A stretch of 64,000 nucleotides of DNA. Origin: Promethearchaeati archaeon. GTDB lineage: Archaea; Asgardarchaeota; Heimdallarchaeia; Heimdallarchaeales; Heimdallarchaeaceae. This document shows, one piece after another, positions 7,418 to 24,370 of this stretch; positions within the stretch are counted from its first letter, which is position 1, and each line of letters begins with the position of its first letter. A model generated the notes under the pieces. It was not told the DNA's origin and searched no databases. It saw nothing but the letters and a program-made list of their open reading frames with translations. Made by a program: the position numbers and the translations under genes. Location of the stretch: the NCBI GenBank assembly GCA_013166775.1, contig JABLTJ010000003.1:32001-96000 (forward strand), read 5' to 3'.

Positions 7418-7524
7418 TATGAATTTATCTCAGTCTAATCCTTAATAATATTTTGTAAATAAACTACTACTACTGCGAGAATTAAGAAAGAGTTTAAATT
7501 ATACGAAGTTTAAAACTAAGATTG

Positions 7525-8421: not shown

Positions 8422-8502
8422 CAATTCAGTTTTAAAGCTGATTGGGAAGTTTTATAATTGTTTTACCTTCCTTTTAGATAGAATTTGGATTAAGTGTAAA
8501 AA

Positions 8503-9483
8503 ATGCATATGCCTGATGGAATTTTATCTTTTCCTGAATCAATTATTTACTTAGCAATTTCTGTTGTAATTATATTATTCTCAATATGGATGAGCAGGAA
8601 AAATCTACAAACTAAGCAAATTCCAGTTATTGGCGTTTTAGCTGCAGGTCTTTTTGCAGCACAAATGTTTAATTTTCCTACACCAGCTGGTGCAAGTGGG
8701 CATCTTATTGGGACAGCTCTAGCAACTACCTTAGTAGGACCTTGGGTAGGTATTCTTATTATCTCTTCTATACTGATTGTTCAAGCAATGTTTGGAGATG
8801 GCGGATTATTAGCTTTTGGAGCTAATGCTTTGAATATGGCTATTATAGGCGCTTTCACAACTTGGTTAGTTTTCTATTTTGTACCAGTGAAATGGAAGGA
8901 AAACAATAAAGGATTTTCACTTGTTTCTGCAATTGCAGGTTTTCTTTCAACAATGATGATGTCTTTTGCTGCATCAATTGAACTAACAATAGCTGAAGCA
9001 GGTCCTTCAGGCATAATTTTTGGGTGGATGCTGGGTCTTCATGCATTAATTGGTTTGATTGAAGGATTGATAACTTTCGCTATTGTTATATTTGTTTTTA
9101 AGGCTGATCCTTCACTGCTCAAAGCTGCTGAGGGTTCTCTTTATTTAAGAATGCAGACAGAATCTATACCTGAAAAATTTAAAATTCCTCTTTGGACTCT
9201 CTTTGTTTCTCTAGGTGTTTTTGTTTTTATGAGCATATTTGGTGTAATAGCTAGTACAAATCCAGATGGTTTAGAAAGAACCTTTGAAAGTCTAGGTATT
9301 GAAGGTGGTGTTACAGGTTTTCTAAGCTTTGGAGATGGACTTGCATATGACATACTTCAAATGTTTATTATCATGATTATTTTATTTATTGTGCTGGTTG
9401 TTTTGAGTTATATCGTTTATAGACTGAATATTTACCAAGCATCTAAAAGAAAAGAAACTATAATACCTGCAGATAAAAGATAG
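8503..9483 (+). CDS. cbiM: ECF Ni/Co transporter substrate component, CbiM/NikM fused to a PDGLE (NikN-like) domain
   Basis: N-terminal MHMPDG, SGHLIG, GDGGL, C-terminal NPDGLE. Confidence 0.92.
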   Translation: MHMPDGILSFPESIIYLAISVVIILFSIWMSRKNLQTKQIPVIGVLAAGLFAAQMFNFPTPAGASGHLIGTALATTLVGPWVGILIISSILIVQAMFGDGGLLAFGANALNMAIIGAFTTWLVFYFVPVKWKENNKGFSLVSAIAGFLSTMMMSFAASIELTIAEAGPSGIIFGWMLGLHALIGLIEGLITFAIVIFVFKADPSLLKAAEGSLYLRMQTESIPEKFKIPLWTLFVSLGVFVFMSIFGVIASTNPDGLERTFESLGIEGGVTGFLSFGDGLAYDILQMFIIMIILFIVLVVLSYIVYRLNIYQASKRKETIIPADKR

Positions 9484-9533
9484 TCAGACAAATAAATATT
9501 AATAGAATCTTCTCTTATTTTCTTGCGTTAATA

Positions 9534-10247
9534 ATGAGCTTTCTACTTCCTTTTAAAGAGCGATATGAGAAAAAATCTCTCTCTCCTATAGCGATGACTA
9601 TTACAGTTTTTCTTTCTGTTATTCTTATGATTGTCAGTGAAGATTTTCTATCAATAGTTTTCATCTATGTGCTCACATCCCTTTTTTTTCTGCTACTTGG
9701 AGCATCTTTTTTAAGAACAATAAAATTAGTTTCAGCAGCAGCATTACTTATTTTTTTCCTCGGACTCCCAAGTTTATTCTTGGAAAATGGACTGGAAAGA
9801 GCAGGTTTCATTTGGATGCGAGGTATTTTATCTGCTTCATTAATTACTCTATATTCTTCAACAATTACTATGCAGGAATTTGCACAAAGCTTGAGAAGTT
9901 TGTTCTTCCCAAATCTTATTGTTACAATTATTGTTTTGATTCTTCGTTATACACCATTACTATACCAACAAGGAGCAGAAATCAGAACAGCACAAGAATT
10001 AAGAGGTATCTCACAATCTAATAGGAAACGAAGATTCAATGCAGTAGTATCCTTATTAGGAGGAACTTTAATTCGTTCTGTATATAGGGGTGGAGAAATT
10101 TATGAGGCGATGCTTGTTAGAGGATTGGAAAGTATAAAAATCGTCAGAAGAGGTTCAATAAAACCCTTGGATCCTTTCATTATGGTCATCTTTACTGTTG
10201 TTTTAAGTTTATTATCAGGAGGAATTTTATCATGCATCATGAAATAG
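9534..10247 (+). CDS. cbiQ: ECF transporter T component
   Basis: Hydrophobic protein with AQELRG and AMLVRG motifs; operon position. Confidence 0.88.
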   Translation: MSFLLPFKERYEKKSLSPIAMTITVFLSVILMIVSEDFLSIVFIYVLTSLFFLLLGASFLRTIKLVSAAALLIFFLGLPSLFLENGLERAGFIWMRGILSASLITLYSSTITMQEFAQSLRSLFFPNLIVTIIVLILRYTPLLYQQGAEIRTAQELRGISQSNRKRRFNAVVSLLGGTLIRSVYRGGEIYEAMLVRGLESIKIVRRGSIKPLDPFIMVIFTVVLSLLSGGILSCIMK

Positions 10248-10951
10248 AATTTAAAGAAGTTGTTTTTGAATATCCAGAGAAGAAATTTGGTTTATACAAT
10301 ATCACATTCAATATAGGCATTGGAACAAAATTTGCAGTTTGTGGAAGAAATGGAGCTGGAAAAACAACTTTACTTAGAATTTTGATGGGTTTAGAGGAAC
10401 ATCAAGCTGGTAACATTAAAGTTCAAGAATTAACATTAAACCGTGAAAATATAAAAGAAGTAAGAAAACGAATTGGTTTTGTTTTTCAAAACCCTGATTC
10501 ACAAGTTTTCTCTGCGAGTGTATATGAAGATGTTGCATTTGGACCAAGAAATTTGGGATTAGAAGAAGAAGAAGTGGAAAAGAGAGTTGAAGAAGCTTTG
10601 AAGAGTGTTGATTTATTGGATTGTACTCACGAATCACCGTTTCGATTATCCTTTGGTCAACGTAAAAGAGTCGCTATCGCAGGTGTACTGTCAATGGATC
10701 CATCTATAATAATTCTAGATGAACCATTCTCAAATCTAGATTATCCTACAAGAACTTCCTTAAAAAAACTTCTAGAAAACTCTGTTCTTAAAAGAGGAAA
10801 AACAATTATATTCACAACACATTATAGAAAGTTAATAAACGAATGGGCAGACAGTGTACTTTTCTTAGATGCGGGTAAAATCCTTTATCACGGAAATGTA
10901 GAAGATTTATCTATAATAGACGAAGCGGATAGATTCTTAGGACCTTTCTAA
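10232..10951 (+). CDS. cbiO: ECF transporter ATPase
   Basis: GRNGAGKTT, FQNPDSQ, LSFGQRKR, LDEP. Confidence 0.92.
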   Translation: MHHEIEFKEVVFEYPEKKFGLYNITFNIGIGTKFAVCGRNGAGKTTLLRILMGLEEHQAGNIKVQELTLNRENIKEVRKRIGFVFQNPDSQVFSASVYEDVAFGPRNLGLEEEEVEKRVEEALKSVDLLDCTHESPFRLSFGQRKRVAIAGVLSMDPSIIILDEPFSNLDYPTRTSLKKLLENSVLKRGKTIIFTTHYRKLINEWADSVLFLDAGKILYHGNVEDLSIIDEADRFLGPF

Positions 10952-11364
10952 AGTATTAGTTTAGAATATTTATCTACTACTTCAAGATACATTTCATTAC
11001 ATTTTTCTTCAGATAATTCCATTATCCCTTTTTCCATTCTTGCTGAAATTCTACTTACTAGTTCTTTCAGTTTATCTCGAAATTCAATAATTGGAAGAGT
11101 ATAGTACAAATATTTGTAACCACCTCTTTCTAGACTGGTCTTTTCTTTTTTTACAGCTCCAACATCCATTAATCTTTGAATTGATCTAACAATTGATGCT
11201 CTGTCTTTTCTGATTATTTCAGTGATTCCTTTAACATCTACTGGTTTGTTATGATTAATACATGCAAGTACTTCCAATTCATTTTCAGACAGTCCAAAAA
11301 GAGCTCTAACTATATCAAAGCAAGTTATGTCATCAGAATCAAAAGAAGAAAGAGGGAATGACAT
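10948..11364 (-). CDS. Winged-helix transcriptional regulator (TrmB-like HTH, COG3355-like) with three Cys
   Basis: FGLSENELEVL...DRASIVRSIQRL...GGYKYLY. The ATG at 11364 follows a GGTGA RBS. Confidence 0.82.
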   Translation of the reverse strand: MSFPLSSFDSDDITCFDIVRALFGLSENELEVLACINHNKPVDVKGITEIIRKDRASIVRSIQRLMDVGAVKKEKTSLERGGYKYLYYTLPIIEFRDKLKELVSRISARMEKGIMELSEEKCNEMYLEVVDKYSKLIL

Positions 11365-11375
11365 TTTTTTCACCT

Positions 11376-11750
11376 CTAGAAAGTATATACAACATCAGCT
11401 TCGAGGGATTCAGTTACTAAGAACATTCCTCCGACTATATCGTCAACTTCCTCAATGAAATCTTCACGTTTTAAATTATACATCTCAAGTACTGGACTGC
11501 AGACGTAAATTTTAGCACCTACTTCTTTAGCTTCACGTAAAGTTTCAATGTAGGGATTCTTGCCTTCCATTGGAATTAAGTTTTCAGGAACTCCTTTCTT
11601 AAGTAGTAATCCAGCTGACATAGTATAAATAATTGTTACTTCTGCATCAAGCATAGCTGCTAGTGATGCAAGATGTAAGGGGGGCTCAAGTCTTTCTTTG
11701 AATTCCTTTCCATGAGTTAATACGAAAACTATTTTCTGTTCAGGCATCAT
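11376..11750 (-). CDS. DsrE family sulfur carrier protein
   Basis: GAKIYVCS active-site Cys, C-terminal ADVVYTF. Confidence 0.85.
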   Translation of the reverse strand: MMPEQKIVFVLTHGKEFKERLEPPLHLASLAAMLDAEVTIIYTMSAGLLLKKGVPENLIPMEGKNPYIETLREAKEVGAKIYVCSPVLEMYNLKREDFIEEVDDIVGGMFLVTESLEADVVYTF

Positions 11751-11756
11751 TACCAC

Positions 11757-12230
11757 CTAGAAGTATAATGTGATATCTGCTTCTGATGCAAATTCTAAGA
11801 AGGTTGCAGCTCCACCAACTTCACATTCATCAATCAGCTGCTTTCTTTTGATTTTCATTACATCCATTGTCATTTGACAAGCAATGAGCTTTACACCAGA
11901 TTCAATAGAAATGTCCATCAATTCTTGTAATTTTGCAACATTAGCACCTTTCATCCAGCTTTTCATCATTGCTGTTGCCATATCAGTCATACCAGGAATC
12001 ATTCCTACAATTTGTGGTATTGGCATTGGCATAGCTGTTTGACCTACGGGAGTTACTTTGAGTTTGTTTAGTTTTTTCTTCTTCAACATATTTAATCCAA
12101 AGAATGTGAAGAATATACCTACTTCATAATCCATTGCTGCTGCAGTAGTGGCTAAGATTAATGGTGGGTATGCACCAGCAATATCTGCTTTTGAAGCTAT
12201 CATAGCTATTCGTTTTTTCTTTTCCGACAT
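11757..12230 (-). CDS. DsrE2-like (DrsE_2) sulfurtransferase
   Basis: AYPPLILATTAAAM, FFTFFGL, LIACQMTMDVM, GGAATFL. Confidence 0.9.
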   Translation of the reverse strand: MSEKKKRIAMIASKADIAGAYPPLILATTAAAMDYEVGIFFTFFGLNMLKKKKLNKLKVTPVGQTAMPMPIPQIVGMIPGMTDMATAMMKSWMKGANVAKLQELMDISIESGVKLIACQMTMDVMKIKRKQLIDECEVGGAATFLEFASEADITLYF

Positions 12231-12239
12231 TTTTTTCAC

Positions 12240-12479
12240 CTATTTAATTCTTTTAATGATATAGCGGTATACTCCGCCTTCTTCCGAGTTAGCAATAAGT
12301 TCATTTCCGGTAGATCTGGTCCATGCTTGGAAATCCGCAACTGATCCAGGATCTGTTGAGAAAACTTCAATATGCTCCCCTAATGAAATTTCCATAATTG
12401 CTTTCTTTGTTTTAAGGATTGGAAGAGGACAGCTTAACCCCTTTGCATTAAGAGTTTTAGCAATTTTTGTATCACTCAT
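12240..12479 (-). CDS. tusA: Sulfur carrier TusA
   Basis: LNAKGLSCPLPILKTKK, STDPGS. Confidence 0.92.
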   Translation of the reverse strand: MSDTKIAKTLNAKGLSCPLPILKTKKAIMEISLGEHIEVFSTDPGSVADFQAWTRSTGNELIANSEEGGVYRYIIKRIK

Positions 12480-12490
12480 TTTTTTCACCT

Positions 12491-13636
12491 TTATAATCGT
12501 CCTTTAATCAAGAATTTGAAATAAGCAAATTTGAACGCCTTCTTGAATAATCCAAACAAAAGAGTTGAATTTAATCCGTATTTTTTTGGAGGGTAGTTAT
12601 AACTGAAATGCAATAACATAGATTTTTTGAAGGATGTTAATATGAAACAGATTGTTAATCCCTTGTATTTAGCTTTGGGAGGTTTCCCTTTAAGTTCTGA
12701 AATTAAGTTTTTCACTAAAATATTAGAAGAGAAGTGCGAAACAGTTCCAGATTTTGAAACTGGTAAATTTGTTCCATCTCCGATTGCATAGATGTTGTCA
12801 TGTTCGTTGTGTTTCATTGTATATCTATCAGTAGTAATCCATCCTTCTCTATCACCCAATCCAGAGTCTTTTATGACATCTTGACCTTCATGAGGAGGTA
12901 TTATTATAAGACTTTCATATCCTATTTCTTCTCCTTCAAGAGATAGTACTTTGTTGTTTTCATTATCAATTGTTTCGAAATTGAAAAATGGAGTGAACTT
13001 GATGTTTCTTTTAGCAAAAAGTTTCTCTACTTTCTTAGCAGGTTCAGCCATTGTGAAAGCTCTTGATAATGGATAGAGAAATCTGATTGTTGATTTGTGT
13101 CTTATTCCTCTCTTACGTAGGTATTTATCTAATAAAAATGCGAATTCAATTGGAGTAGGTGGGCATTTGTAAGGTACGGTTGTCGGAGTAATAACAATAG
13201 TTCCTCCATCAAACTCCATAAGTTTTTCTTTTAGATGTTCAACTCCATCTTTGGTATAAAATTCGCAAACATTATCAGTTTGACAATATGCATCAAGTTT
13301 CTCTTGTGCCATTCTTGCTCCTGTTGCTAAGATAAGAAAATCGTATAGGATATTTTTCCCATTTTCTATTGTTACTATGTTTTTTTCAGGGTCTATCTTT
13401 GTAGCAATGTTTTTAATCCAGTTTACTTCTTTACTCAGTAATTTAGAAATTGGCTTTAAGAGATTAGAAATTGGTTTATCTTGAAAAACCCAAAATAAGT
13501 ACTCTGGTTCATAGATATTTTCTTCCTTTGGCTCAATCAAAGTGATTTTGACTTTTTTTCTATTTATTTTACGTGCTAAATGATTAGCTGTAGCTAAACC
13601 AGAAAAACCTCCACCTATTATAACTATATTTTTCAT
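12491..13636 (-). CDS. sqr: Sulfide:quinone oxidoreductase-like flavoprotein (type III-like)
   Basis: GGGFSG FAD motif, YDFLILATGA, PYKCPP, YAIGD, SKSG, TICFI. Confidence 0.85.
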   Translation of the reverse strand: MKNIVIIGGGFSGLATANHLARKINRKKVKITLIEPKEENIYEPEYLFWVFQDKPISNLLKPISKLLSKEVNWIKNIATKIDPEKNIVTIENGKNILYDFLILATGARMAQEKLDAYCQTDNVCEFYTKDGVEHLKEKLMEFDGGTIVITPTTVPYKCPPTPIEFAFLLDKYLRKRGIRHKSTIRFLYPLSRAFTMAEPAKKVEKLFAKRNIKFTPFFNFETIDNENNKVLSLEGEEIGYESLIIIPPHEGQDVIKDSGLGDREGWITTDRYTMKHNEHDNIYAIGDGTNLPVSKSGTVSHFSSNILVKNLISELKGKPPKAKYKGLTICFILTSFKKSMLLHFSYNYPPKKYGLNSTLLFGLFKKAFKFAYFKFLIKGRL

Positions 13637-13646
13637 TTTAGTTCCT

Positions 13647-13886
13647 TCAGTGTAGTTTTTTTACAATATAACGATCGAAACCGTCTTCATTGATTAGTGC
13701 AGTTAATTCATGTTTTGCTTTATCAACCCAAGCGGGAACATCTACTCTTGTTCCCTCATCAGAGCTTAGCAAAGCAATGAATTCTCCAACTTCTGCTTGA
13801 CGTATTGCTTTAATCAGTTCCATCATTGGTCCTGGGCAAAACGCCCCTCTTGCATCTACTTCTATAGCTATTTCATAATCAGTCAT
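13647..13886 (-). CDS. tusA: Second TusA-family sulfur carrier
   Basis: VDARGAFCPGPMMEL, SSDEGT. Confidence 0.9.
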   Translation of the reverse strand: MTDYEIAIEVDARGAFCPGPMMELIKAIRQAEVGEFIALLSSDEGTRVDVPAWVDKAKHELTALINEDGFDRYIVKKLH

Positions 13887-14628: not shown

Positions 14629-14803
14629 ATTGAATCCTTCGAGTTTTAGAATTAAATTATTTAAACTTTTTTACATTTCTGAAACCTTTTCTTTAAACAT
14701 TATGTCTTTTTGCATATTTAGCTATATGAAATAGATATTGAAGATTCTTCTAGTCAAGCGTTTTGGTCTGTAAAAATGCAATAGTTTCATTTTCGGGAAT
14801 ATC

Positions 14804-14879
14804 TTTTTATATATGTATAGGCTTCTGCGTATGATACGGTTGTCGAAAAGTTCGTTTCTAAACTGCAATAAAACGAACT
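14804..14879 (+). promoter_or_regulatory. Promoter and 5' region of the hdr-mvh operon
   Basis: TTTTTATATA box near 14804; ATACGGTTGT at 14834-14843; inverted repeat AGTTCGTTT (14849-14857), N13, AAACGAACT (14871-14879). Confidence 0.55.
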
Positions 14880-14901
14880 CTAAGTAATAACCGGTGAGAA
14901 T

Positions 14902-15594
14902 ATGATAGCAGTATGGATTAGTTTAATAGTTACTGCCATCTTGGTAGCTGGCTCAATTTCTTTACGTATTATTTCTAAAGAGGGAGAGGAAGGAAGAATC
15001 ATCAGACCTAATGAGAAATTATCTGATGAATTCATGGAGGATTTAGCGCTAGTACCTGGTGGTGATAAAATAAAAGAATGCATACAATGTGGCATTTGTT
15101 CTGCTAGTTGCCCTGTTTCTTTTGCTATGGATTATACTCCTAGACAAATATGGGAACTTCTGAGATCTGGGCAATTAAAAAAAGCACTAAATAGTCACAC
15201 TGTATGGTTGTGCTCTTCTTGTTACAAATGTGCTGTAAGATGTTCGACTGGCATCCCCTTTACTGACGTAATGTATGGATTAAAGCGCTTAGGTAAAGAG
15301 AAGAAATTGAATCAAAAGGGTATAAGTGGACCAATCTGGGCAAGTACTTTTCTTAACAATGTTCGTCGTTATGATCGAATCACTGATTTATTTGTAATGA
15401 TTATGTTTATGGTTAAGAAACAACCCTTCAGAATACTTTCAATCATTCCAGAATCTTGGGGAATGTTCACTAAAGGACGAGTTCCGTTTAAGAATCTCAT
15501 GATGCTTGTTCCTAAAACAATCAAATCTTTTTTCACTAAGAGCGATGTCAAGAAGATGATGAAATGGATAGATAAAAACGTGGAGATTAGTTAA
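14902..15594 (+). CDS. hdrC: Heterodisulfide reductase subunit C with an N-terminal TM helix
   Basis: CIQCGICSASCP, MDYTPRQI, WLCSSCYKCAVRC; GGTGA RBS. Confidence 0.92.
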   Translation: MIAVWISLIVTAILVAGSISLRIISKEGEEGRIIRPNEKLSDEFMEDLALVPGGDKIKECIQCGICSASCPVSFAMDYTPRQIWELLRSGQLKKALNSHTVWLCSSCYKCAVRCSTGIPFTDVMYGLKRLGKEKKLNQKGISGPIWASTFLNNVRRYDRITDLFVMIMFMVKKQPFRILSIIPESWGMFTKGRVPFKNLMMLVPKTIKSFFTKSDVKKMMKWIDKNVEIS

Positions 15595-16491
15595 ATGACT
15601 GAAGTAGAAAAAAAGGGAGGATATACTTACTTTCCCGGATGTGCTCTAGAAGGAATTCAAGAACCTTACAAAAAATCTACAGAAGCAGTTGCTAAAGAAT
15701 TAGGGATTGTCTTAAACGAGCTTAAATCATGGAACTGTTGTGGAACTCCCTCCATCATTGGTGTAGATGAGATTAAGGCTCTAGCTTTGTCTGCTAGAAA
15801 TCTTGCCTTAGCAGCAAAAGAAGGAGATCAAATTGTAAGTCCCTGTAACACTTGTTTTGGTACTCTGAAAAAAGTGAATAGATACATGGAATATAATAAA
15901 GAAATTTACTCTGCAATAAACGGTTCCCTGAATGCTGCGGGATTATCTTATGAACCTAACACTGTAGAAGTAAGACATTTTGTAGATATCTTAGTAAATG
16001 ATTATGGAATAGAAGAGATTAGGAAAAGAGTCAAAAGACCTCTTACAGGTTTCCGTGTAGTTCCATTTTATGGATGTCATTTTTCTAGACCTTTTGGTGA
16101 ACATGATGATGTAGAAAATCCAAGAAAAATGGATGATTTAATCAAAATTTCTGGAGCAGAATGGGTAGATTATCCAATGAAATTTACCTGTTGCGGAGCT
16201 ACTCTTCCAGTAACTGATCCAAAGATTGGTTATCGACTTATACATGAGATTCTCAGATCAGCGAAGGAAGTAAAAGCTGATTTCATAATTACATCGTGTC
16301 CTCTCTGTCAAACTAACTTAGAAATGTTTCAGAGAGTAGCAGGAAATATGTATGGTGGCAAGCACCACATTCCTGTTTTATATGTTACTCAATTAGTTGG
16401 ATATGCACTTGGGCTTTCAGTAAAGGAACTGATGATAGATAAAACTCTGGTCAAGCCAAAAAGACTTATTGAAAAAAGTGAGGTGGTCTAA
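15595..16491 (+). CDS. hdrB: Heterodisulfide reductase subunit B
   Basis: YFPGC, WNCCG, PCNTC, FYGC, TCCG, SCPLCQ (two CCG domains). Confidence 0.95.
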   Translation: MTEVEKKGGYTYFPGCALEGIQEPYKKSTEAVAKELGIVLNELKSWNCCGTPSIIGVDEIKALALSARNLALAAKEGDQIVSPCNTCFGTLKKVNRYMEYNKEIYSAINGSLNAAGLSYEPNTVEVRHFVDILVNDYGIEEIRKRVKRPLTGFRVVPFYGCHFSRPFGEHDDVENPRKMDDLIKISGAEWVDYPMKFTCCGATLPVTDPKIGYRLIHEILRSAKEVKADFIITSCPLCQTNLEMFQRVAGNMYGGKHHIPVLYVTQLVGYALGLSVKELMIDKTLVKPKRLIEKSEVV

Positions 16492-17774
16492 TGACATCTG
16501 AAGCAGATCCAAGAATTGGAGTATTTGTGTGTAAATGTGGAAAAAACATTGCAGCAAAAGTCGCAGTTAATGAAGTAGCAGAATATGCAAAAACATTAGA
16601 TAATGTAGAGTTTAGTCAAGTAAATACTTTTACCTGTTCAGCAGTAGGACAAAATGCTATCAAGGATGCCGTAAAGGAACACAATCTAGATAGAGTAGTT
16701 GTAGCGAGTTGCTCACCTACTATGCACGAAAGCACTTTTCAAGCTGCTACTGAAGAAGCTGGAATAAATAGATATCAATTCCAAATGGCAAACATAAGAG
16801 AATTCTCTTCATGGGTTACCAAAGATCCAGCTGAAGCTACAAGCAAAGCTAAGAGAATAGTAACAGGTGCCGTAAGAAGAGTCGCATTTCATGAACCACT
16901 TGAAGAAGTAATCGTTCCAGTTAATCCAAATACGTTAGTCATTGGTGGTGGAATCGCAGGAATTTCTGCTGCATTAAAAATTGCAGATGCTGGCCATAAA
17001 GTTATCTTAGTAGAAAAAGAACCTTCTATAGGTGGAAGGATGGCTCAACTAGATAAAACTTTTCCAACATTGGATTGTGCAGCATGTATTCTATCACCTC
17101 GAATGGTAGATGTTGGAAAGCATCCAAACATAGAGATGATGGCTTATTCTGAAGTCGTAGCTGTTGATGGTTACATAGGAAATTTCAATGCTAAAATAAA
17201 GAACAAAGCTAAGTCAGTAGATGAAGAAAAGTGTACTAGTTGTGGAGATTGTTGGGAAAACTGTCCCGTTAGATATACTGCTTATACAGAACCAGCAAAA
17301 ATAGTTCCTGCATTGCTTTATGATGAGAAAACCTTCTTAGATAAAATCATAACCAAGTACAAAGATAGACGAGGAGCTATTATGCCAGTTCTTGAGGCAA
17401 TTAATAGTGAATACCGTTATCTTCCTGAAGAGAGCTTGAAATATGTTGCAGTACAAATGGATTATCCTCTCAGTTCTATTTATAGAATTGCTACATTCTA
17501 CAATGCATACAGCTTAGAACCAAGAGGAGATCATCTGATAAGCGTCTGTATGGGAACAACATGTCATGTTAAAGGAGCTCCAAGGCTTGTTGAAAGGCTA
17601 AAGAGCGAGTTGAAAATTGATATTGGTGAGACTACAGATGACGGTAAATTTACTTTAGAAACAGTTCGATGTTTGGGCTGTTGTAGCTTAGCTCCGGTGA
17701 TAACGATAGATGGTGAAGCTTTCGGTAATATGAAACCGAGTAGAATTCCAAGGGTGCTTGATAAATATGAGTGA
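16491..17774 (+). CDS. Fusion of the HdrA N-terminal half and a NuoE/HydC [2Fe-2S] domain
   Basis: RIGVFVCKCG, VVASCSP, GGGIAG, DKTFPTLDCAACIL, CTSCGDCWENCP; then ATFYNAYSLEPRG...CMGTTCH...CLGCC (NuoE). Confidence 0.92.
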   Translation: MTSEADPRIGVFVCKCGKNIAAKVAVNEVAEYAKTLDNVEFSQVNTFTCSAVGQNAIKDAVKEHNLDRVVVASCSPTMHESTFQAATEEAGINRYQFQMANIREFSSWVTKDPAEATSKAKRIVTGAVRRVAFHEPLEEVIVPVNPNTLVIGGGIAGISAALKIADAGHKVILVEKEPSIGGRMAQLDKTFPTLDCAACILSPRMVDVGKHPNIEMMAYSEVVAVDGYIGNFNAKIKNKAKSVDEEKCTSCGDCWENCPVRYTAYTEPAKIVPALLYDEKTFLDKIITKYKDRRGAIMPVLEAINSEYRYLPEESLKYVAVQMDYPLSSIYRIATFYNAYSLEPRGDHLISVCMGTTCHVKGAPRLVERLKSELKIDIGETTDDGKFTLETVRCLGCCSLAPVITIDGEAFGNMKPSRIPRVLDKYE

Positions 17775-19674
17775 TATAAAACCAGCTGATATTAATATTC
17801 TGAGAGCTAAGGGAGAAGAATCTCTTTATCCAGATAGACCTAAAATTGGAATTAGCATGGCTTCATGCGGATTAGCTGCTGGTGCTGGGAAAATTTTGGA
17901 AACAATTGAAGGAGAATTGAAGAACCTAGATCTTGATTGGATTGTTACAAAAACAGGATGTCCTGGTTTTTGCCAAAAAGAACCTCTATTATATTATCAT
18001 GCACCTGGAAAAGAGAAAATTTACTTCGGTGAATTAACGGAGAAGAAAGCAAAAGATTTAGTCAAAGAGTTATCCGAAAATACAGTAGATAGAGATTTTG
18101 CTACATGGAAAATTATGTCTGATGTTACAATTGATGATAAGACATTGTTCATTAGTGAAGAAACAGAAATCGAAGATATTCCATTATACCAAGAATATGA
18201 TTTTTTTAAAAAACAACATAAAATTGCTCTTAGAAACTGTGGTTTCATTGATCCTCAAAGTATAGAGGAATATATCGCAAAAGGAGGGTATGCAGCTTTC
18301 CAAAAAGCTTTGAAAATGAAACCAGACGAGGTTATTGATTTCATTAAGAAATCAGGACTACGTGGAAGAGGTGGAGGAGGATTCCCTACGGGATTAAAGT
18401 GGGAACTCTGTTCCAAAGAAGATTCAGATATTAAGTATATTATCTGTAACGCAGATGAAGGAGATCCTGGAGCATATATGGATAGAAGTATACTTGAGGG
18501 TGATCCTCACTCTATAATCGAAGGGATGCTGATTGGTGCCTATGGTATCGGATCTAATGAAGGCTATATCTATGTAAGAGCTGAATATCCATTAGCAATA
18601 GAATTGCTAGATATTGCAGTTCAACAAGCTCGTGAAAATGGTTTTCTTGGAGCAAATATCCTCAATTCAGGTTTTAGTTTTGATATTAATCTTGCATATG
18701 GAGCAGGTGCTTTTGTTTGTGGTGAAGAGACAGCTCTAATAGCATCAATAGAAGGTAGACCAGTTGAACCAAGAATAAGACCTCCCTTTCCATCACAATC
18801 AGGTTTATGGGAGAAACCTACCAACATTAACAATGTAGAAACTTGGGCTAATGTACCCCCAATTATTCTGAAAGGACATGATTGGTATTCCTCTTTAGGA
18901 ACAGAAACAAGTAAGGGAACAAAAGTATTTTCTCTAGTTGGTAAAATTAACAACACAGGACTAGTGGAAGTTCCTATGGGAATTACTTTGCGAGAAATCA
19001 TCTACGATGTAGGTGGAGGTATAATCGATAATAAGAAATTCAAAGCTATTCAAACAGGTGGTCCATCAGGTGGATGCCTTCCTGAAAGCCATATTGATCT
19101 ACCAGTGGATTATGAGAGTCTCAAGGAAGCTGGGTCTATAATGGGGTCAGGAGGAATGATTGTTGTTGATGAAGACACTTGCATTGTGGACCTTGCGAAA
19201 TTCTTTATAGATTTTACTAGAGATGAATCTTGTGGTAAATGTGTTTCTTGTCGTGATGGATTAGATGCATGTCACGAAATTCTGAATAAAATAACTGAAG
19301 GAAAATCTGCTTTAGAAGACCTAGATTACTTAGAAGAGCTTGGACAATCAATTGTTGATTTCTCAATGTGCGGTTTAGGAACCACAGCTCCAAATCCTGT
19401 TCTGACAACTCTACGATATTTCAAAGATGAATATATAGCTCATATCGAGAAAAAAGAATGCTCAGCTAAAGTTTGCAAAGCGTTAATTACCTATGAAATA
19501 ATCAAAGATAATTGTGTTGGATGCCAGGCATGTGCTAGACTTTGTCCAGAAAATGCAATAAAAGGGCAGAAAGATAAAGTCCACAAGATTAACCAAGAAC
19601 TCTGTATAAAATGCGGAGTCTGTTTTGATACGTGTAGATACGATGCAATTCTAATAAGGAGTGGTGATAAATAA
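17767..19674 (+). CDS. NuoF/HydB-type FMN/NAD(H) subunit with extra Fe-S domains
   Basis: LRGRGGGGFPTG, NADEGDPGAYMDR, GAGAFVCGEET, GGPSGG, SCGKCVSCR; N-terminal thioredoxin-like [2Fe-2S] domain and C-terminal 2x[4Fe-4S]. Confidence 0.95.
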   Translation: MSDIKPADINILRAKGEESLYPDRPKIGISMASCGLAAGAGKILETIEGELKNLDLDWIVTKTGCPGFCQKEPLLYYHAPGKEKIYFGELTEKKAKDLVKELSENTVDRDFATWKIMSDVTIDDKTLFISEETEIEDIPLYQEYDFFKKQHKIALRNCGFIDPQSIEEYIAKGGYAAFQKALKMKPDEVIDFIKKSGLRGRGGGGFPTGLKWELCSKEDSDIKYIICNADEGDPGAYMDRSILEGDPHSIIEGMLIGAYGIGSNEGYIYVRAEYPLAIELLDIAVQQARENGFLGANILNSGFSFDINLAYGAGAFVCGEETALIASIEGRPVEPRIRPPFPSQSGLWEKPTNINNVETWANVPPIILKGHDWYSSLGTETSKGTKVFSLVGKINNTGLVEVPMGITLREIIYDVGGGIIDNKKFKAIQTGGPSGGCLPESHIDLPVDYESLKEAGSIMGSGGMIVVDEDTCIVDLAKFFIDFTRDESCGKCVSCRDGLDACHEILNKITEGKSALEDLDYLEELGQSIVDFSMCGLGTTAPNPVLTTLRYFKDEYIAHIEKKECSAKVCKALITYEIIKDNCVGCQACARLCPENAIKGQKDKVHKINQELCIKCGVCFDTCRYDAILIRSGDK

Positions 19675-21449
19675 TGGTGAATATAACTATAAACGATCAA
19701 GAATATGATATTGAAGAAGGAAAAACAATTCTTGAAGCTGCTCAAGCAATGGGATTGGAAATACCGACTCTGTGCTATCATAAAGCTCTTAGTCCGTATG
19801 GTGCTTGTCGTCTATGTACTGTAGAAATTGAACTCAACGGAAGAACAATGTATCAAGCTTCATGCCAATATCTCGTTGAAGAAGGTATGAACATTCAAAC
19901 TGAGAGTGAACGAGTTGTTAATGGCCGTAAGAAGATGATTGAACTTCTTCTAGCAAGAGCTCCGGAAGCAGAAGATATTTTGGATCTTGCTTATAAATAT
20001 GGTGTCAAAGATACAAGATTCTTAAAGGAATTTGATGACGTCTGTATTTTATGTGGTCTTTGTATTCGTGTCTGTCATGATAGAATGGGTTTCAAAGCTA
20101 TTGAATTCATTAACCGTGGAATCGAAAGAAAAGTCAGCCTACCCTTTGAAGATTTCCATGAAGTTTGCAGAACTTGTGGTTCCTGTTCAACATACTGCCC
20201 AACAGGTGCTAAAGCAGTGCAACTAGAAAATCTCACACATCATACTCCAAGACCAATATTATCAGAATTTGATCAAGGATTAGCAACTAGACCAGCAGTT
20301 TATACACCATTTCCACAGGCTGTACCAAAAATCCCAGTAATTGACAGAAATAATTGCATACACTTCCAGACTGGTGAATGTAAGATTTGTCAAGATGTAT
20401 GTGAACCTGATGCTATAAATTATGAACAAGAAGATGAAATTGTAGAAAGGGAAGTAGGAGCAATCGTCGTTACTACAGGTTTTGATCCTTTTGATCCTAA
20501 CAGACTACCTCAATATGGTTATGGAAAATATCCTAATGTAATAACTTCATTAGAATTTGAGAGAATCTCAAGTGCAAGTGGTCCAACAGAAGGTGAAATC
20601 ATTTTCCCAGGAGTTACTGAAATAAAAAGTGCTGCAATTCTCCATTGTATAGGTAGTAGAGATGAAAACACAAACAGATACTGTTCCAGACTCTGTTGTA
20701 TGAATGCCCTCAAAGCTGCGAATCTTATAAGAGATAAATTACCAGATTCTCATGTTTATGAATTTTATATAGACATTAGAGCTGCAGGTAAAGGGTATGA
20801 GGAATATTATCAAAAGATGCTTAGAAGTGATATACGAATTATAAGAGGAAAAGTAGCTGAAATCACCAACATTCCAGATTTGCCTGAAGATGAAGGACGG
20901 TTAACTGTAGTAGCAGAAGACACTCTTCTTGGAGCAATTTTGAGAGTACCAGTTGATCTTGTGATTCTAATGGTTGGTATTGAACCCAAAAAAGATGCTA
21001 GAGATTTAGCCCATATACTCCATTTACCATGTACTGAAGAAGGATTCTATAATGAAAAGCATCCAAAGCTAGCACCAACTGAAACTGTTATAGAAGGAAT
21101 CCATGTAGCTGGTGCATGTCAATTTCCAAAGGATGTACCTGATTCTGTAGCGCAAGGAGAATCTGCTGCAGCTGCTGTTCTTTCAAAGATTGCAAGAGGA
21201 GAATATATTACGGAACCAACGAAAGCTGAAATAGTGGACGATCATTGTTCTGGATGTAGAAACTGTATAGGATTATGCCCCTATTTGGCAATAAGCTTTG
21301 ATGAGGAAGAGGAAATTGCAAAGATAGATTCAGCTCTTTGCCAAGGATGTGGAGTCTGTGTAGCCAGTTGTCCATCTGGAGCAATAATTCACAGAGGTTA
21401 TACTGACAAACAGATCTTTGCGGAAATTGAAGGAGTACTAGAAAGGTGA
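19674..21449 (+). CDS. Fusion of NuoG/HydA N-terminal Fe-S domains and the HdrA C-terminal half
   Basis: IPTLCYH..GACRLC, CILCGLCIRVC, CRTCGSCSTYCP; then EFDQGL..YTPFPQAVP, HCIGSRD, YCSRLCCM, KGYEE, RGKV, GACQFPKD and a C-terminal ferredoxin. Confidence 0.93.
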   Translation: MVNITINDQEYDIEEGKTILEAAQAMGLEIPTLCYHKALSPYGACRLCTVEIELNGRTMYQASCQYLVEEGMNIQTESERVVNGRKKMIELLLARAPEAEDILDLAYKYGVKDTRFLKEFDDVCILCGLCIRVCHDRMGFKAIEFINRGIERKVSLPFEDFHEVCRTCGSCSTYCPTGAKAVQLENLTHHTPRPILSEFDQGLATRPAVYTPFPQAVPKIPVIDRNNCIHFQTGECKICQDVCEPDAINYEQEDEIVEREVGAIVVTTGFDPFDPNRLPQYGYGKYPNVITSLEFERISSASGPTEGEIIFPGVTEIKSAAILHCIGSRDENTNRYCSRLCCMNALKAANLIRDKLPDSHVYEFYIDIRAAGKGYEEYYQKMLRSDIRIIRGKVAEITNIPDLPEDEGRLTVVAEDTLLGAILRVPVDLVILMVGIEPKKDARDLAHILHLPCTEEGFYNEKHPKLAPTETVIEGIHVAGACQFPKDVPDSVAQGESAAAAVLSKIARGEYITEPTKAEIVDDHCSGCRNCIGLCPYLAISFDEEEEIAKIDSALCQGCGVCVASCPSGAIIHRGYTDKQIFAEIEGVLER

Positions 21450-21931
21450 TGAAAATGGTAGTAACAGATGAAAAAACTATTGAAAATACTGATTGGGAAC
21501 CGAGGATTGTAGGATTCTTATGCCGGTGGTGTTCATATGCTGGTGCAGATCTTGCAGGTATAAGTAGACTAGATTACCCACCAAATTCCATCTTTATTAA
21601 AGTACCTTGCACAGGACGTGTCGATCCTACTTTCGTATTGAAAGCTTTTGCTGATGGAGCTGATGCAGTATTCATATCTGGATGCCATCTAGGCGATTGT
21701 CATTATATCGAAGGAAATTACAAAACTATGCGACGATTTGAAATACTCAAAGAAACACTAAAGCAATTGGGTATACATGAGAGAAGGTTTCAACTGACAT
21801 GGATATCAGCATCTGAAGCCCAGAAATTAAAAGAATTTCTCACAAGTATGACATCTTCAATAAAAGAATTAGGACCTATACAATTGCCGATTTTAGCACC
21901 TTTACAAAAGGAGGATAAACAAGATGACTGA
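21449..21931 (+). CDS. mvhD: Hydrogenase delta subunit ([2Fe-2S] adaptor)
   Basis: FLCRWCSYAGADLAG, VPCTGRVD, GCHLGDCHY, WISASE. Confidence 0.95.
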   Translation: MKMVVTDEKTIENTDWEPRIVGFLCRWCSYAGADLAGISRLDYPPNSIFIKVPCTGRVDPTFVLKAFADGADAVFISGCHLGDCHYIEGNYKTMRRFEILKETLKQLGIHERRFQLTWISASEAQKLKEFLTSMTSSIKELGPIQLPILAPLQKEDKQDD

Positions 21932-22880
21932 GAAACTCAAACTAGCCTTCTATTGGGCAGCGAGTTGTGGTGGCTGTGAAGTAGCTATCTTGGATATTGA
22001 TGAAAAAGTCCTTGATGTAGTAGCAATCGCTGATATTGTGTTCTGGCCAGTAGCCATTGATATTAAATACAATGATGTAAGAGCTATGGACGACAAAAGC
22101 ATTGATGTCACCTTCTTTAATGGTTCGATAAGAACTGAAGAGAATGCTGAACTAGCTCGATTATTGAGAGCAAAATCAAAAACATTGGTTGCATTTGGTT
22201 CCTGTTCTTGCTATGGTGGAGTTATAGGTTTAGGAAATCTTTCCTCTAAAGAGGAGTTGTTACATCGAGCCTATATTACAAGTGATTCAACTGATAATCC
22301 TGAGCAGATAAAACCTCAGCTTCATTACAAGGAAGTTCATATTCCTGATGTTCTACCAGCTAATTATGCTTTGGATCAGGTTGTAGATGTTGATTATTAC
22401 TTACCAGGATGTCCACCAAAAGATACACTAGTTTGGAGTGCTATAGAAGCCATTGCTTCTGGAAATCTTCCTGCTAAGGGTGCTGTTTTAGCTCCCAATC
22501 TTACTGTATGCCATGATTGTCCTCGAGAGAAACATGATGAACGAACAATTAAGGAATTCAAAAGAGTTTATAACTTCCAACCTGATGAAACAAAATGTCT
22601 TCTGGAACAAGGTTTAATCTGTATGGGACCTGCTACACGTTCAGGTTGCGATGCTTCTTGTGTTTCTGTAAATATGCCATGTCGAGGTTGTATGGGACCA
22701 ACAGATCAAGTATTTGACCAAGGAGCTAAGATGATTTCCGTGTTAGGAGGACTAATAGATTCTGATGATCCTGAAGAAGTTAAAGAAATAGTTAGTACTA
22801 TAGTTGATCCAGTTGGAACTTTATACTATTTTGGAGTATCCAAGTCTCTAATTAAGCAAAGTGGTGTTAAAAGGAGGTAA
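21924..22880 (+). CDS. mvhG: [NiFe]-hydrogenase group 3c small subunit
   Basis: SCGGC, AFGSC, PGCPP, CHDCPR, CLLEQGLICMGPATRSGC, PCRGC. Confidence 0.92.
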   Translation: MTEKLKLAFYWAASCGGCEVAILDIDEKVLDVVAIADIVFWPVAIDIKYNDVRAMDDKSIDVTFFNGSIRTEENAELARLLRAKSKTLVAFGSCSCYGGVIGLGNLSSKEELLHRAYITSDSTDNPEQIKPQLHYKEVHIPDVLPANYALDQVVDVDYYLPGCPPKDTLVWSAIEAIASGNLPAKGAVLAPNLTVCHDCPREKHDERTIKEFKRVYNFQPDETKCLLEQGLICMGPATRSGCDASCVSVNMPCRGCMGPTDQVFDQGAKMISVLGGLIDSDDPEEVKEIVSTIVDPVGTLYYFGVSKSLIKQSGVKRR

Positions 22881-22884
22881 AATA

Positions 22885-24339
22885 ATGACAGAAAAAACAG
22901 TAAAACATATTGTTATTGATCCAGTAACTCGTCTAGAAGGGCATGCCAAAATTGACATTATTCTAGATGATAAAGGAAAGATAGAAGATGTATACTTACA
23001 AGTACCAGAATTCAGAGGATTTGAAAAATTCTGTGAAGGTAGAAGAGTGGAAGAGCTTCCAAGAATAACACCAAAAATCTGTGGTGTTTGTCCTATGGCA
23101 CATCATATGGCATCTGCAAAAGCGTTAGATATGGCATTTGGGGTTGAACCAACATCAGTTGCTCATAAACTTAGAGAGCTTATGTACAATGCCTATGTAT
23201 TTGAGGATCATACACTTGCCTTCTATTTCCTACAAGCTCCAGATTTTGTAGTTGGTCCATCAGCACCTCCAGCTGAGAGGAATATTCTAGGAGTTATAGC
23301 TAAAGTAGGTGTAGATATTGGAAAGGAAGTCATAAAACATCGAGCTTATGGACAACAAATGTTACAGATTCTTACTGGAAGTAAAATCTTTCCAGCAGTT
23401 GCAATTCCAGGTGGAGTTAGCAAAGGATTATCCGAAGAAGACAGAGACAAAATGATACCTTGGGCTGAGAGTTGTGTTGAGTTTTCAAAATTTACACAAC
23501 AGTTATTGCATGATGTAGTTCTCGAAAACAAAGATTATGTAGACTTGATTCTCTCTGATACATACAATCTGAAAGCATATAATATGGGACTAGTTGATGA
23601 GAATAACAAAATCAACTTCTATGATGGACAAATTAGAGTTACATCTCCTGAAGATAAGGAATTTGTAAAATTTGAATCCAAAGATTATCTAGAACACGTT
23701 GCTGAAGTACCAATCCCACATAGTTATGTCAAACGAACTTATCTCAAGAAATTAGGTTTGGAAAATGGATTATATCGAGCTGGACCTCTAGCAAGATTGA
23801 ATGCATCAGAAGGTATGACTACACCTTTAGCACAAAAAGAATACGAGAAATTCTATAGTGTTTTAGGAGGAAAACCAGCAAATCAAACCCTAGCTTACAA
23901 TTGGGCACGCGTAATTGAACAGCTCTATGCTGCTGAAAGAGTTCTTGAATTATTGAATGATCCAGAAATTACAAGTGATGATTTCAGAACCTTAGCAACA
24001 GAAGTACCAACTGAAGGAGTCGGTGTAGTTGAAGCATGCAGAGGAACACTTTATCATCATTACAAATGTGATGAGAAAGGATTGGCTAAGGAGGTAAACC
24101 TAATTGTGGCTACAACTAATAATAAATTTGCATTAGAGAAATCAGTCGAAAAAGCTGCTAGAGGTTTAATAGAATCAGAGCAACCAGATCAAGGAATACT
24201 GAATATGGTAGAAATGTCATTCAGAGCTTATGATCCTTGTATGGCTTGTGCAACACATTCTCTGCCAGGAAAAATGCCATTGACTATCAATCTTTATGAT
24301 AAGAACAAAAATCTTTTACGTAAAATTCAAAGGAAATAA
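22885..24339 (+). CDS. mvhA: [NiFe]-hydrogenase group 3c large subunit
   Basis: TRLEGH, L1 motif ICGVC, L2 motif RAYDPCMACATH plus a cleavable C-terminal tail. AGGAGG RBS before the ATG at 22885. Confidence 0.95.
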   Translation: MTEKTVKHIVIDPVTRLEGHAKIDIILDDKGKIEDVYLQVPEFRGFEKFCEGRRVEELPRITPKICGVCPMAHHMASAKALDMAFGVEPTSVAHKLRELMYNAYVFEDHTLAFYFLQAPDFVVGPSAPPAERNILGVIAKVGVDIGKEVIKHRAYGQQMLQILTGSKIFPAVAIPGGVSKGLSEEDRDKMIPWAESCVEFSKFTQQLLHDVVLENKDYVDLILSDTYNLKAYNMGLVDENNKINFYDGQIRVTSPEDKEFVKFESKDYLEHVAEVPIPHSYVKRTYLKKLGLENGLYRAGPLARLNASEGMTTPLAQKEYEKFYSVLGGKPANQTLAYNWARVIEQLYAAERVLELLNDPEITSDDFRTLATEVPTEGVGVVEACRGTLYHHYKCDEKGLAKEVNLIVATTNNKFALEKSVEKAARGLIESEQPDQGILNMVEMSFRAYDPCMACATHSLPGKMPLTINLYDKNKNLLRKIQRK

Positions 24340-24370
24340 ACCTTTTCTCTTTTCTTTCTTTTATTTTTAA
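24340..24370 (+). terminator. Archaeal T-rich terminator after mvhA
   Basis: CCTTTTCTCTTTTCTTTCTTTTATTTTT immediately after the stop codon. Confidence 0.55.

Follow-up and report, generated by a model that had tools for sequence, protein, structure and literature searches.

Among the closest known relatives of the system reported here are the MvhAGD-HdrABC complexes (PDB 5ODC, 8RVU and 9SW2), encoded in bacteria as hdrCBA-mvhDGA. In a stretch of 64,000 nucleotides from a member of the Heimdallarchaeaceae (assembly GCA_013166775.1, contig JABLTJ010000003.1, positions 32,001 to 96,000), referred to below as the window and numbered from its first letter, we find an operon that encodes all six subunit types of these complexes in the bacterial gene order. 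It differs from them in that its HdrA is made as two polypeptides, with genes for BfuC, BfuB and the N-terminal part of BfuA filling the cut, and from the complexes of hydrogenotrophic methanogens, in which H2-dependent reduction of CoM-S-S-CoB is coupled to that of ferredoxin, in that its host is a non-methanogen. In Hdr and in class II benzoyl-CoA reductase (BCRII), the bifurcating flavin adenine dinucleotide (FAD) has its low-potential exit in the inserted ferredoxin domain of HdrA, its mid-potential entry in MvhD (BamF in BCRII) and its high-potential exit in the cluster on the HdrC side (BamD side) (bioRxiv 10.64898/2026.04.10.717634). In Bfu enzymes, BfuA is the third-substrate port (PMC9304861).

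BCRII of Geobacter metallireducens, Bam[(BC)2DEFGHI]2 or 'Bam-Bfu', is the closest characterised system and the sole one to join a HydBC/Bfu-type flavin mononucleotide (FMN) module (BamGHI) with an HdrA-type FAD module (BamE) (bioRxiv 10.64898/2026.04.10.717634; PMC9304861). The authors of its structure stated in April 2026 that no earlier report had described one complex with two distinct bifurcation modules (bioRxiv 10.64898/2026.04.10.717634). A first-pass annotation of the window, which had warned that related ideas exist and that its architecture might not be new, was apt in this respect, as BCRII provides a structural precedent for HydBC-type and HdrA-type coupling. Like the window operon, BCRII also holds an MvhD-like subunit (BamF), an HdrBC-like subunit (BamD) and a Type 2 BfuA. 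Unlike it, BCRII has no hydrogenase and no intact disulfide site, and it carries a tungsten AOR output module; Pfam searches of the operon and neighbouring genes detected neither an AOR-family gene nor a BamC-like one. BamE is a fusion of two HdrA units, as against one split HdrA equivalent here. BamI is a separate subunit feeding the C-terminal ferredoxin domain, and no Bfu subunit of the Bam complex is fused to HdrA, whereas the BfuA part described here is fused to the C-terminal piece of HdrA.

Two further systems share parts of this arrangement. Type III HdrA (PMC12054007) and HdrL-like proteins carry a pyridine-nucleotide module inside the same HdrA domain and have mvhADG in their cluster, but they are unsplit single chains whose module is a one-domain FAD/NAD(P)H unit with neither FMN nor a Bfu-type ferredoxin site. 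NiFe-HydABCSL of Acetomicrobium mobile (7T2R; PMC8880783) combines a [NiFe] hydrogenase with a BfuABC core, and MvhA, the NuoF homologue P0002 and the NuoE part of the window operon have their best or near-best solved relatives in its L, B and C subunits, respectively. There, however, the hydrogenase feeds a Type 3 BfuA, which has a His-ligated cluster, directly, and both HdrABC and MvhD are lacking. No description of a split HdrA with HydCBA/NuoEFG genes inside it was found in the searchable literature, and the supplement text of the Bfu paper (PMC9304861) has no Hdr/Mvh entry. Appler et al. treat Asgard NuoEFG homologues as separate putative electron-transfer complexes and draw NuoEFG beside Mvh-Hdr in Lokiarchaeales, with no split or fused HdrA described (bioRxiv 10.1101/2024.07.04.601786). 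The architecture presented here is real, conserved and built from known modules, and it is apparently undescribed.

Architecture of the split HdrA

The operon comprises eight open reading frames (ORFs), all on the forward strand between 14902 and 24339, that abut or overlap by 1–20 nucleotides. The ORF listing and Pfam domains bear out the gene order first proposed for it: hdrC, hdrB, [HdrA-N::NuoE], nuoF, [NuoG-N::HdrA-C], mvhD, mvhG, mvhA. The two fusion proteins are P0001 (16491–17774; 427 residues), with an FAD Rossmann fold and Fer4 followed by 2Fe-2S_thioredx, and P0003 (19674–21449; 591 residues), with Fer2_4 at residues 1–78 and Fer4 domains, so that Pfam mapping of both confirms the nested architecture. 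Phmmer searches of the PDB align residues 6–261 of P0001 with residues 3–259 of HdrA (5odc_A; E = 5e-90) and residues 283–427 with residues 12–156 of HydC (7t2r_C; E = 6e-41). The latter segment is a complete HydC/NuoE domain, covered at residues 284–426 by 2Fe-2S_thioredx (PF01257; E = 1e-49). In P0003, residues 4–179 align with residues 7–182 of BfuA (9mqx_A; E = 2.5e-34) and residues 192–589 with residues 257–650 of HdrA (5odc_A; E = 3e-106). E-values this extreme exclude a chance match of the parts.

The N-terminal piece of HdrA (P0001 residues 1–261; 16491–17273) holds the N-terminal [4Fe-4S] domain, the GxGxxG motif for FAD, the DCAAC cluster motif and, from the inserted ferredoxin domain, the first CxxCxxCxxxCP motif. 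A linker of ∼21 residues joins it to the [2Fe-2S] thioredoxin-like NuoE/HydC/BfuC domain (linker and domain, 17274–17774). In P0003, the NuoG-N/HydA-N/BfuA part (residues 1–183; 19674–20222) is followed by a short linker and the C-terminal piece of HdrA (together 20223–21449), which brings the second Cys motif (C228...C243), the thioredoxin-reductase core and the C-terminal 2×[4Fe-4S] domain. The break is clean: HdrA stops after CWENCPVR (∼17270) and resumes at SEFDQGL (20262), with zero residues lost, and comparison with 5odc_A upholds the earlier reading of these two points as adjacent in ordinary HdrA. The inserted ferredoxin domain is cut between its two CxxCxxCxxxC(P) motifs, and the two pieces of HdrA are fused in frame to the first and last genes, respectively, of an inserted module of the hydC-hydB-hydA(N-terminus) type. 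All segments of HdrA are present, not on a single polypeptide but on two proteins 1.9 kb apart, each fused to a Bfu part.

Integrity of the two flavin modules

The HdrA parts are ∼45–60% identical to solved HdrA over residues 3–650, and all of their cysteines that align with cysteines of 5odc_A are retained. The cluster cysteines of the N-terminal piece are invariant in an alignment of 24 homologues, as are Cys353, Cys358, Cys394 and Cys398 of the NuoE domain, the C-terminal domain of P0001 that supplies BfuC; in both HdrA pieces, the cysteines that align with those of solved HdrA are invariant among the homologues aligned.

Between the two fusion genes lies nuoF/hydB/bfuB (17758–19674), the product of which, P0002, is 638 residues long counted from the TTG at 17758, the ATG at 17767 being the more likely start. 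Pfam assigns Complex1_51K, SLBB and NADH_4Fe-4S, and all three domain blocks of BfuB are present: an N-terminal Trx-like [2Fe-2S] domain, the FMN/NAD(H) core with a [4Fe-4S] domain, and a C-terminal 2×[4Fe-4S] domain. Residues 30–635 align with residues 7–596 of NfnB (9n5u_B; E = 7e-232) and residues 39–631 with NiFe-HydB (7t2r_B), with further matches to HydB (8a6t_B) and to 9mqx_B. The alignment spans the N-terminal Trx-like [2Fe-2S] and C-terminal 2×[4Fe-4S] domains, which are not found in non-bifurcating or complex-I NuoF. As judged from its sequence, P0002 is a complete bifurcating-type NuoF/BfuB, and NAD(H)/ferredoxin bifurcation is predicted for it.

The BfuA part of P0003 carries, as read from the translation, one [2Fe-2S] motif (C34/C45/C48/C64) and two Cys4 [4Fe-4S] motifs (C124–C134 and C165–C175); no motif for a His-ligated cluster (HxxxCxxC) was found in the translation of residues 1–183. 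By these motifs it is assigned as a 'Type 2' BfuA in the sense of Schut et al., a form with a [2Fe-2S] and two [4Fe-4S] clusters and without the His-ligated A3 and the A5 clusters (PMC9304861). A single-chain AlphaFold2 model of P0003, built from a 22-row alignment, has a mean predicted local distance difference test score (pLDDT) of 73 and a predicted template modelling score (pTM) of 0.47 and confirms the two folds. In Foldseek comparisons its BfuA part superimposes on 9mqx_A with a root-mean-square deviation of 3.5 Å over 180 columns, and its HdrA-C part matches 8rvu_A (E = 6e-37).

HdrC (14902–15594; 230 residues; Pfam Fer4_8/Fer4_17, a Fer4 dicluster) is the 2×[4Fe-4S] subunit. HdrB (15595–16491; 298 residues), the presumed disulfide-reducing site, has two Pfam CCG domains and aligns with residues 4–292 of 8rvu_b (E = 2e-50), all CCG-motif cysteines being retained; the two CCG motifs and the 2×[4Fe-4S] unit of an HdrBC pair are thus in place. 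The hydrogenase genes are mvhD (21446–21931; 161 residues), for the [2Fe-2S] adaptor (Pfam FlpD; E = 4.5e-52), mvhG (21924–22880; 318 residues), for the small subunit (Pfam Oxidored_q6), and mvhA (22861–24339; 492 residues), for the large subunit (Pfam NiFeSe_Hases). MvhA contains both NiFe-binding motifs, RICGVCPMAHH (L1, RxCGxC) and DPCMACATH (L2, DPCxxC), which together with MvhG and MvhD are features of group 3c enzymes; it matches 7t2r_D (E = 1.6e-120) and 5odc_F (E = 6e-114). The earlier suggestion that one complex could carry both flavin centres is well founded as a prediction, because both flavin modules look intact.

HdrC opens with a hydrophobic stretch of 24 residues (residues 1–24; 14902–14973; MIAVWISLIVTAILVAGSISLRII), a possible membrane anchor. 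Loci L002 and L085 of the Heimdallarchaeaceae conserve the whole protein, while alignments with bacterial HdrC begin at about residue 32–40.

Support for the junctions

In Logan, contigs from three runs of one study (including X1 and X2) cover 16400–21500 in one piece with 0 differences, although the window itself may derive from these runs. Independent contigs also give the sequence support across both junctions that had been called for: a contig of 4681 nucleotides from a cold-seep metagenome of a different study (X5) spans 17139–21500 without a gap at ∼90% identity and therefore bridges both. Locus L002, on an independent Joint Genome Institute contig from a metagenome-assembled genome (MAG) of the Heimdallarchaeaceae, has the identical gene order, with protein identities of 74–82%.

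The split might in principle be an assembly artefact, or a decaying gene whose pieces do not function together, and the derivation of the window from a MAG (88.7% complete, 4.5% contamination) could be taken to favour this; yet the junctions are bridged by contigs from four runs and two studies, the ORFs contain no stops or frameshifts, the cofactor cysteines are invariant, and a search for the same breakpoints across genomes finds identical junctions in more than 20 loci from more than 12 phyla. We give an artefact or a decaying gene next to no chance of being the explanation.

Distribution and variants

The whole operon was mapped by tblastn in one-genome-per-species contigs. The split form occurs, with variants, in MAGs of Heimdallarchaeaceae and in bacteria of more than 12 phyla. 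The HdrA-N::NuoE fusion is common, with more than 120 distinct clusters (90% identity), of which the best 120 all cover at least 94% of P0001; the closest homologues are named Candidatus Heimdallarchaeaceae, and source names among the clusters include Planctomycetota, TA06 and Gemmatimonadota. In a sample of 300 Asgard-phylum genomes, full-length NuoG-N::HdrA-C was found in 3, namely that of the window and one each from its genus and its family. The window genome also carries two ordinary full-length HdrA paralogs.

The full order hdrCB-[HdrA-N::NuoE]-nuoF-[NuoG-N::HdrA-C]-mvhDGA is found at L001, L004, L027 and L036, the hosts including an 'archaeon' MAG, Zixibacteria and Ignavibacteria. It is partial at L002, L003, L005–L008, L022, L052, L063 and L078, and orders cut by contig ends occur in Nitrospirales, Spirochaetales, Thermoplasmata, Myxococcales, 'delta proteobacteria', Glassbacteria and Anaerolineae. 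In every split lineage the junction has the same position, with the CxxCxxCxxxCP motif of BfuA followed by a short linker and SEFDxGL or its equivalent. A single-chain form, HdrA-N-NuoE-NuoF-NuoG-HdrA-C, was not found among longer proteins.

Four variants extend this picture. In variant (a), seen in Clostridiales, Acidobacteriota and Ignavibacteria (for example at L011), HdrA-N is a free protein of 284 residues, followed by genes for DRTGG, HATPase, HydS-like and PHP regulators typical of HydABC operons and, downstream, by separate nuoE and nuoF and the same NuoG-N::HdrA-C fusion. Since the regulator genes of the HydABC type are retained, a whole hyd-type operon sits inside hdrA. Variant (b) is an abundant protein of ∼1080 residues in which NuoG-N::HdrA-C core is continued by a second HdrA unit, accompanied by a short HdrA-N'. 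Examples are P0205 and P0173 (L083, 9001–12243, and L084, 9001–12246). The partner is either a 143-residue HdrA-N' or a 293-residue HdrA-N'::NuoE, NuoF is sometimes fused to a GltD-like domain, and mvhDGA is present in a Planctomycetes MAG and absent from a Dehalococcoidia genome.

In variant (c), canonical hdr(-mvh) operons adjoin unfused nuoE, nuoF and a short nuoG (L012, L026, L067 and L075), and these may be unfused versions of the same supercomplex. The hosts are Dehalococcoidia and Desulfobacteraceae, the operons are of the form hdrCBA(-mvhDGA) (L067, 11865–16028; L075, 1–2015; L012, 7809–8820; L026, 5–1581), and their NuoF falls inside the NuoF clade of the split operons. Variant (d), at L035, is an HdrA with a GltD-type insertion of ∼500 residues, the 'type III HdrA' of PMC12054007. 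At L050 (10001–12626), a sister of the intact L022, HdrA-N is followed directly by NuoG-N::HdrA-C, without nuoE or nuoF and with the pieces spread over three reading frames; it is a deletion derivative, or else a long-read assembly introduced frameshift errors.

Evolution of the inserted cassette

The most informative comparison comes from a genome of the same genus, G151, in which an orthologous locus (L085, on contig C56) combines a divergent regulator-dsrE-dsrE-tusA-tusA cluster with hdrCB...mvhDGA at 72–94% identity (73% over full-length HdrC, 92% for MvhG). There, HdrA (7053–10418) is a single chain of 1122 residues in which a GltD-type insertion (Fer4_20 + Pyr_redox_2) replaces the three Bfu genes. 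The GltD insertion point lies ∼35 residues downstream of the Bfu break, within the same inserted ferredoxin domain, and Pfam finds no such insertion in the window operon. The window HdrA is sister to this GltD-type HdrA, with 82% identity and a Shimodaira–Hasegawa-like approximate likelihood ratio (SH-aLRT) support of 100; canonical archaeal HdrA comes next. The same genus and family also contain a second kind of split-HdrA operon (L086, on G154:C34, 7000–14900; L087, on G160:C15, 7400–14700). It contains a canonical hdrA, HdrA-N::NuoE, nuoF, NuoG-N::HdrA-C and mvhD, and hdrBC and mvhGA are not adjacent.

Identities to the window differ between segments. To L086 and L087 they are 72–75% for NuoE and 72% for NuoF as against 44% for HdrA-C; to the bacterial loci they are 41–52%, 50–59% and 46–52%, respectively; and to G151, where the Bfu genes are absent from the locus, HdrA-C is 85% identical. 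A tree of concatenated HdrA-N and HdrA-C places the split forms at separate points among HdrAs of the canonical and GltD types. A tree constrained to unite them is 505 log-likelihood units worse, with p-AU 3e-73 in the approximately unbiased (AU) test, for which the split-HdrA group was named after the tree had been seen. For the HdrA parts, this test rejects the idea that the whole split gene arose once and was inherited vertically. In a NuoF tree with few outgroups, the NuoF tip groups match those of HdrA.

The lack of monophyly of the split HdrA parts, the mosaic of segment identities and the GltD-type sister of the window HdrA together suggest, as the simplest reading, that the Bfu cassette moves between hdrA paralogs by homologous recombination through the hdrA flanks. 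Its position between the two halves of hdrA is what could allow such movement, and transplantation of the cassette would explain why the junctions are identical everywhere despite the polyphyletic HdrA that flanks them.

Proposed complex and its wiring

On balance, and with moderate confidence, we interpret the operon as encoding one cytoplasmic, perhaps membrane-tethered, iron-sulfur flavoprotein complex that unites an Mvh [NiFe] hydrogenase, HdrABC and a Bfu module in a two-stage cascade. MvhAG with its adaptor MvhD would be the hydrogenase module, HdrBC with the FAD protein HdrA the heterodisulfide-reductase module, and BfuC, BfuB and BfuA the NAD(H)- and ferredoxin-dependent FMN module. 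The two HdrA polypeptides would reassemble, the N-terminal piece bringing the FAD dinucleotide-binding motif and the C-terminal piece the remainder of the flavin domain. As the first Cys motif of the inserted domain is on the N-terminal piece and the second on the C-terminal piece, its two [4Fe-4S] clusters are probably ligated across the two chains.

The last cluster motif of BfuA is only ∼8–25 residues from HdrA sequence. Because both breakpoints lie in the inserted ferredoxin domain and the BfuA tether is so short, the Bfu module is most likely wired onto the low-potential arm of HdrA, replacing free ferredoxin or acting beside it. The occupation of the same HdrA domain by the GltD NAD(P)H domain in the sister protein of G151 supports this placement and fits a coupling of HdrA to pyridine nucleotides at this position, which two different modules of that kind fill in sister proteins. 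H2 would be oxidised by MvhAG and the HdrA FAD reduced through MvhD; one electron would pass downhill through HdrC to HdrB, reducing a disulfide or persulfide, and the boosted electron would pass into BfuA. The BfuBC core would then split electrons again, between NAD+ and ferredoxin. Even with H2 at partial pressures as low as those in sediments, the cascade would yield NADH and reduced ferredoxin.

The module could instead be wired as in BCRII, the only solved complex with both modules, in which the path runs from BamI to E1/E2, BamF and B-FAD, Bfu thus feeding the FAD via the C-terminal ferredoxin domain and the MvhD-like subunit (bioRxiv 10.64898/2026.04.10.717634). Bfu would then be a second mid-potential input and not a low-potential output: NADH and reduced ferredoxin would be confurcated by BfuBC and reach the HdrA FAD via BfuA, the C-terminal ferredoxin domain and MvhD, in parallel to the hydrogenase or in equilibrium with it, while the split inserted domain served free ferredoxin or another partner. 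Such a route would fit the presence of MvhD as the one partner in every split operon, even in those without mvhGA, and the finding that the best solved relative of MvhA, 7t2r_D, is the large subunit of a Bfu-type enzyme, but it sits poorly with the placing of BfuA beside the inserted ferredoxin domain by both junctions and the short linker, and with the GltD NAD(P)H domain in that same domain in a same-genus genome. We regard it as rather unlikely. A still simpler arrangement, a plain non-bifurcating diaphorase giving an NAD+-linked hydrogenase/disulfide reductase with no ferredoxin at the FMN module, draws on the many non-bifurcating enzymes that hold NuoF homologues (PMC5861303) and on the GltD version in G151, which has no Bfu-type ferredoxin site. 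The retention in P0002 of the N-terminal Trx-like [2Fe-2S] and C-terminal 2×[4Fe-4S] domains, marks of bifurcating HydB/BfuB, and its end-to-end alignment with NfnB, NiFe-HydB and HydB make a diaphorase of this kind distinctly improbable.

Several observations besides the BCRII precedent weigh against the transplanted, two-stage cascade as we have drawn it. Some split operons (L007, L022, L078, L086 and L087) have no adjacent mvhGA or hdrBC, so that the hydrogenase and the disulfide reductase are frequent and not obligatory partners. The low-potential electrons of HdrA exceed the reducing need of Bfu at standard H2 pressure, and the cascade is sensible only at low H2 pressure. In the model of P0003, pLDDT falls below 50 at junction residues 139–167 and 194–221, and this low confidence weakens any placement of BfuA relative to the half ferredoxin domain. 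Finally, unequal evolutionary rates between segments could inflate the mosaic of segment identities. We advance only tentatively the full proposal, in which Asgard archaea and many sediment bacteria would use a cascade from HdrA FAD to the Bfu FMN and iron-sulfur centres to gain NADH and reduced ferredoxin from trace H2, with disulfide reduction meeting the cost, by means of a transplanted 'operon-within-a-gene' Bfu cassette.

Gene neighbourhood

Upstream of the operon, a divergent cluster of six genes on the reverse strand (10948–13886) encodes a regulator, two DsrE-like proteins, a TusA, an SQR/FCSD-like flavoprotein and a second TusA. Without the flavoprotein, it is conserved beside the hdr-mvh operon of G151 at 69–94% identity. 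No tusA, dsrE or sqr homologue was found within 10 kb of the split operon at any bacterial locus examined. A persulfide relay as the conserved substrate system of the family is accordingly rejected, and the persulfide idea of the first-pass annotation lacks support outside this genus, in which the tusA/dsrE neighbours are kept.

Further upstream, a CbiM-type transporter gene (8503–9483) is followed by two ORFs reaching to 10951, the second of which (10232–10951) starts like an ABC-type ATPase. The region 8503–10951 could be a cobalt or nickel uptake system of the ECF type; it lies just upstream of the clusters for sulfur relay and hydrogenase and might supply nickel to the hydrogenase. Signals read from the sequence around the operon, all on the forward strand, are a candidate archaeal TATA box in the TTTATATATG region (14803–14812), ∼90 nucleotides upstream of hdrC, a candidate ribosome-binding site, GGTGA (14893–14897), ahead of the same gene, and a T-rich tract 3' of mvhA (24340–24370), a putative archaeal terminator. 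The operon region 16000–24000 has a GC content of 0.365–0.378, compared with 0.30–0.34 in the remaining window, and a strongly positive GC skew, which could reflect composition constraints or foreign origin. Elsewhere in the window, an Orc1/Cdc6 gene (53303–54505, forward strand) adjoins genes for a RING-finger protein (54842–56236) and a VWA-domain protein (56173–58305), both on the reverse strand, a combination that fits an Asgard host.

Implications

It has long been asked what group 3c (Mvh-type) hydrogenases and HdrABC do in organisms that are not methanogens; these hydrogenases are among the commonest in sediment MAGs and Asgard archaea. A hydrogenase/Hdr machine joined to an NAD(H)/ferredoxin module names likely redox partners and a testable reaction. 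The operon family would be a second example of two bifurcation modules in one complex, far more widespread than BCRII and differently wired. It is also of structural interest as a flavoprotein whose FAD and ferredoxin domains would need completion across two chains. In the Heimdallarchaeaceae, the NuoEF(G) homologues found here would belong to a hydrogenase-linked soluble complex and not to complex I, and the NAD(P)H module of that complex differs, as Bfu or GltD, between members of one genus. Both points matter for how the metabolism of H2 and NADH is modelled in relatives of the eukaryotic ancestor.

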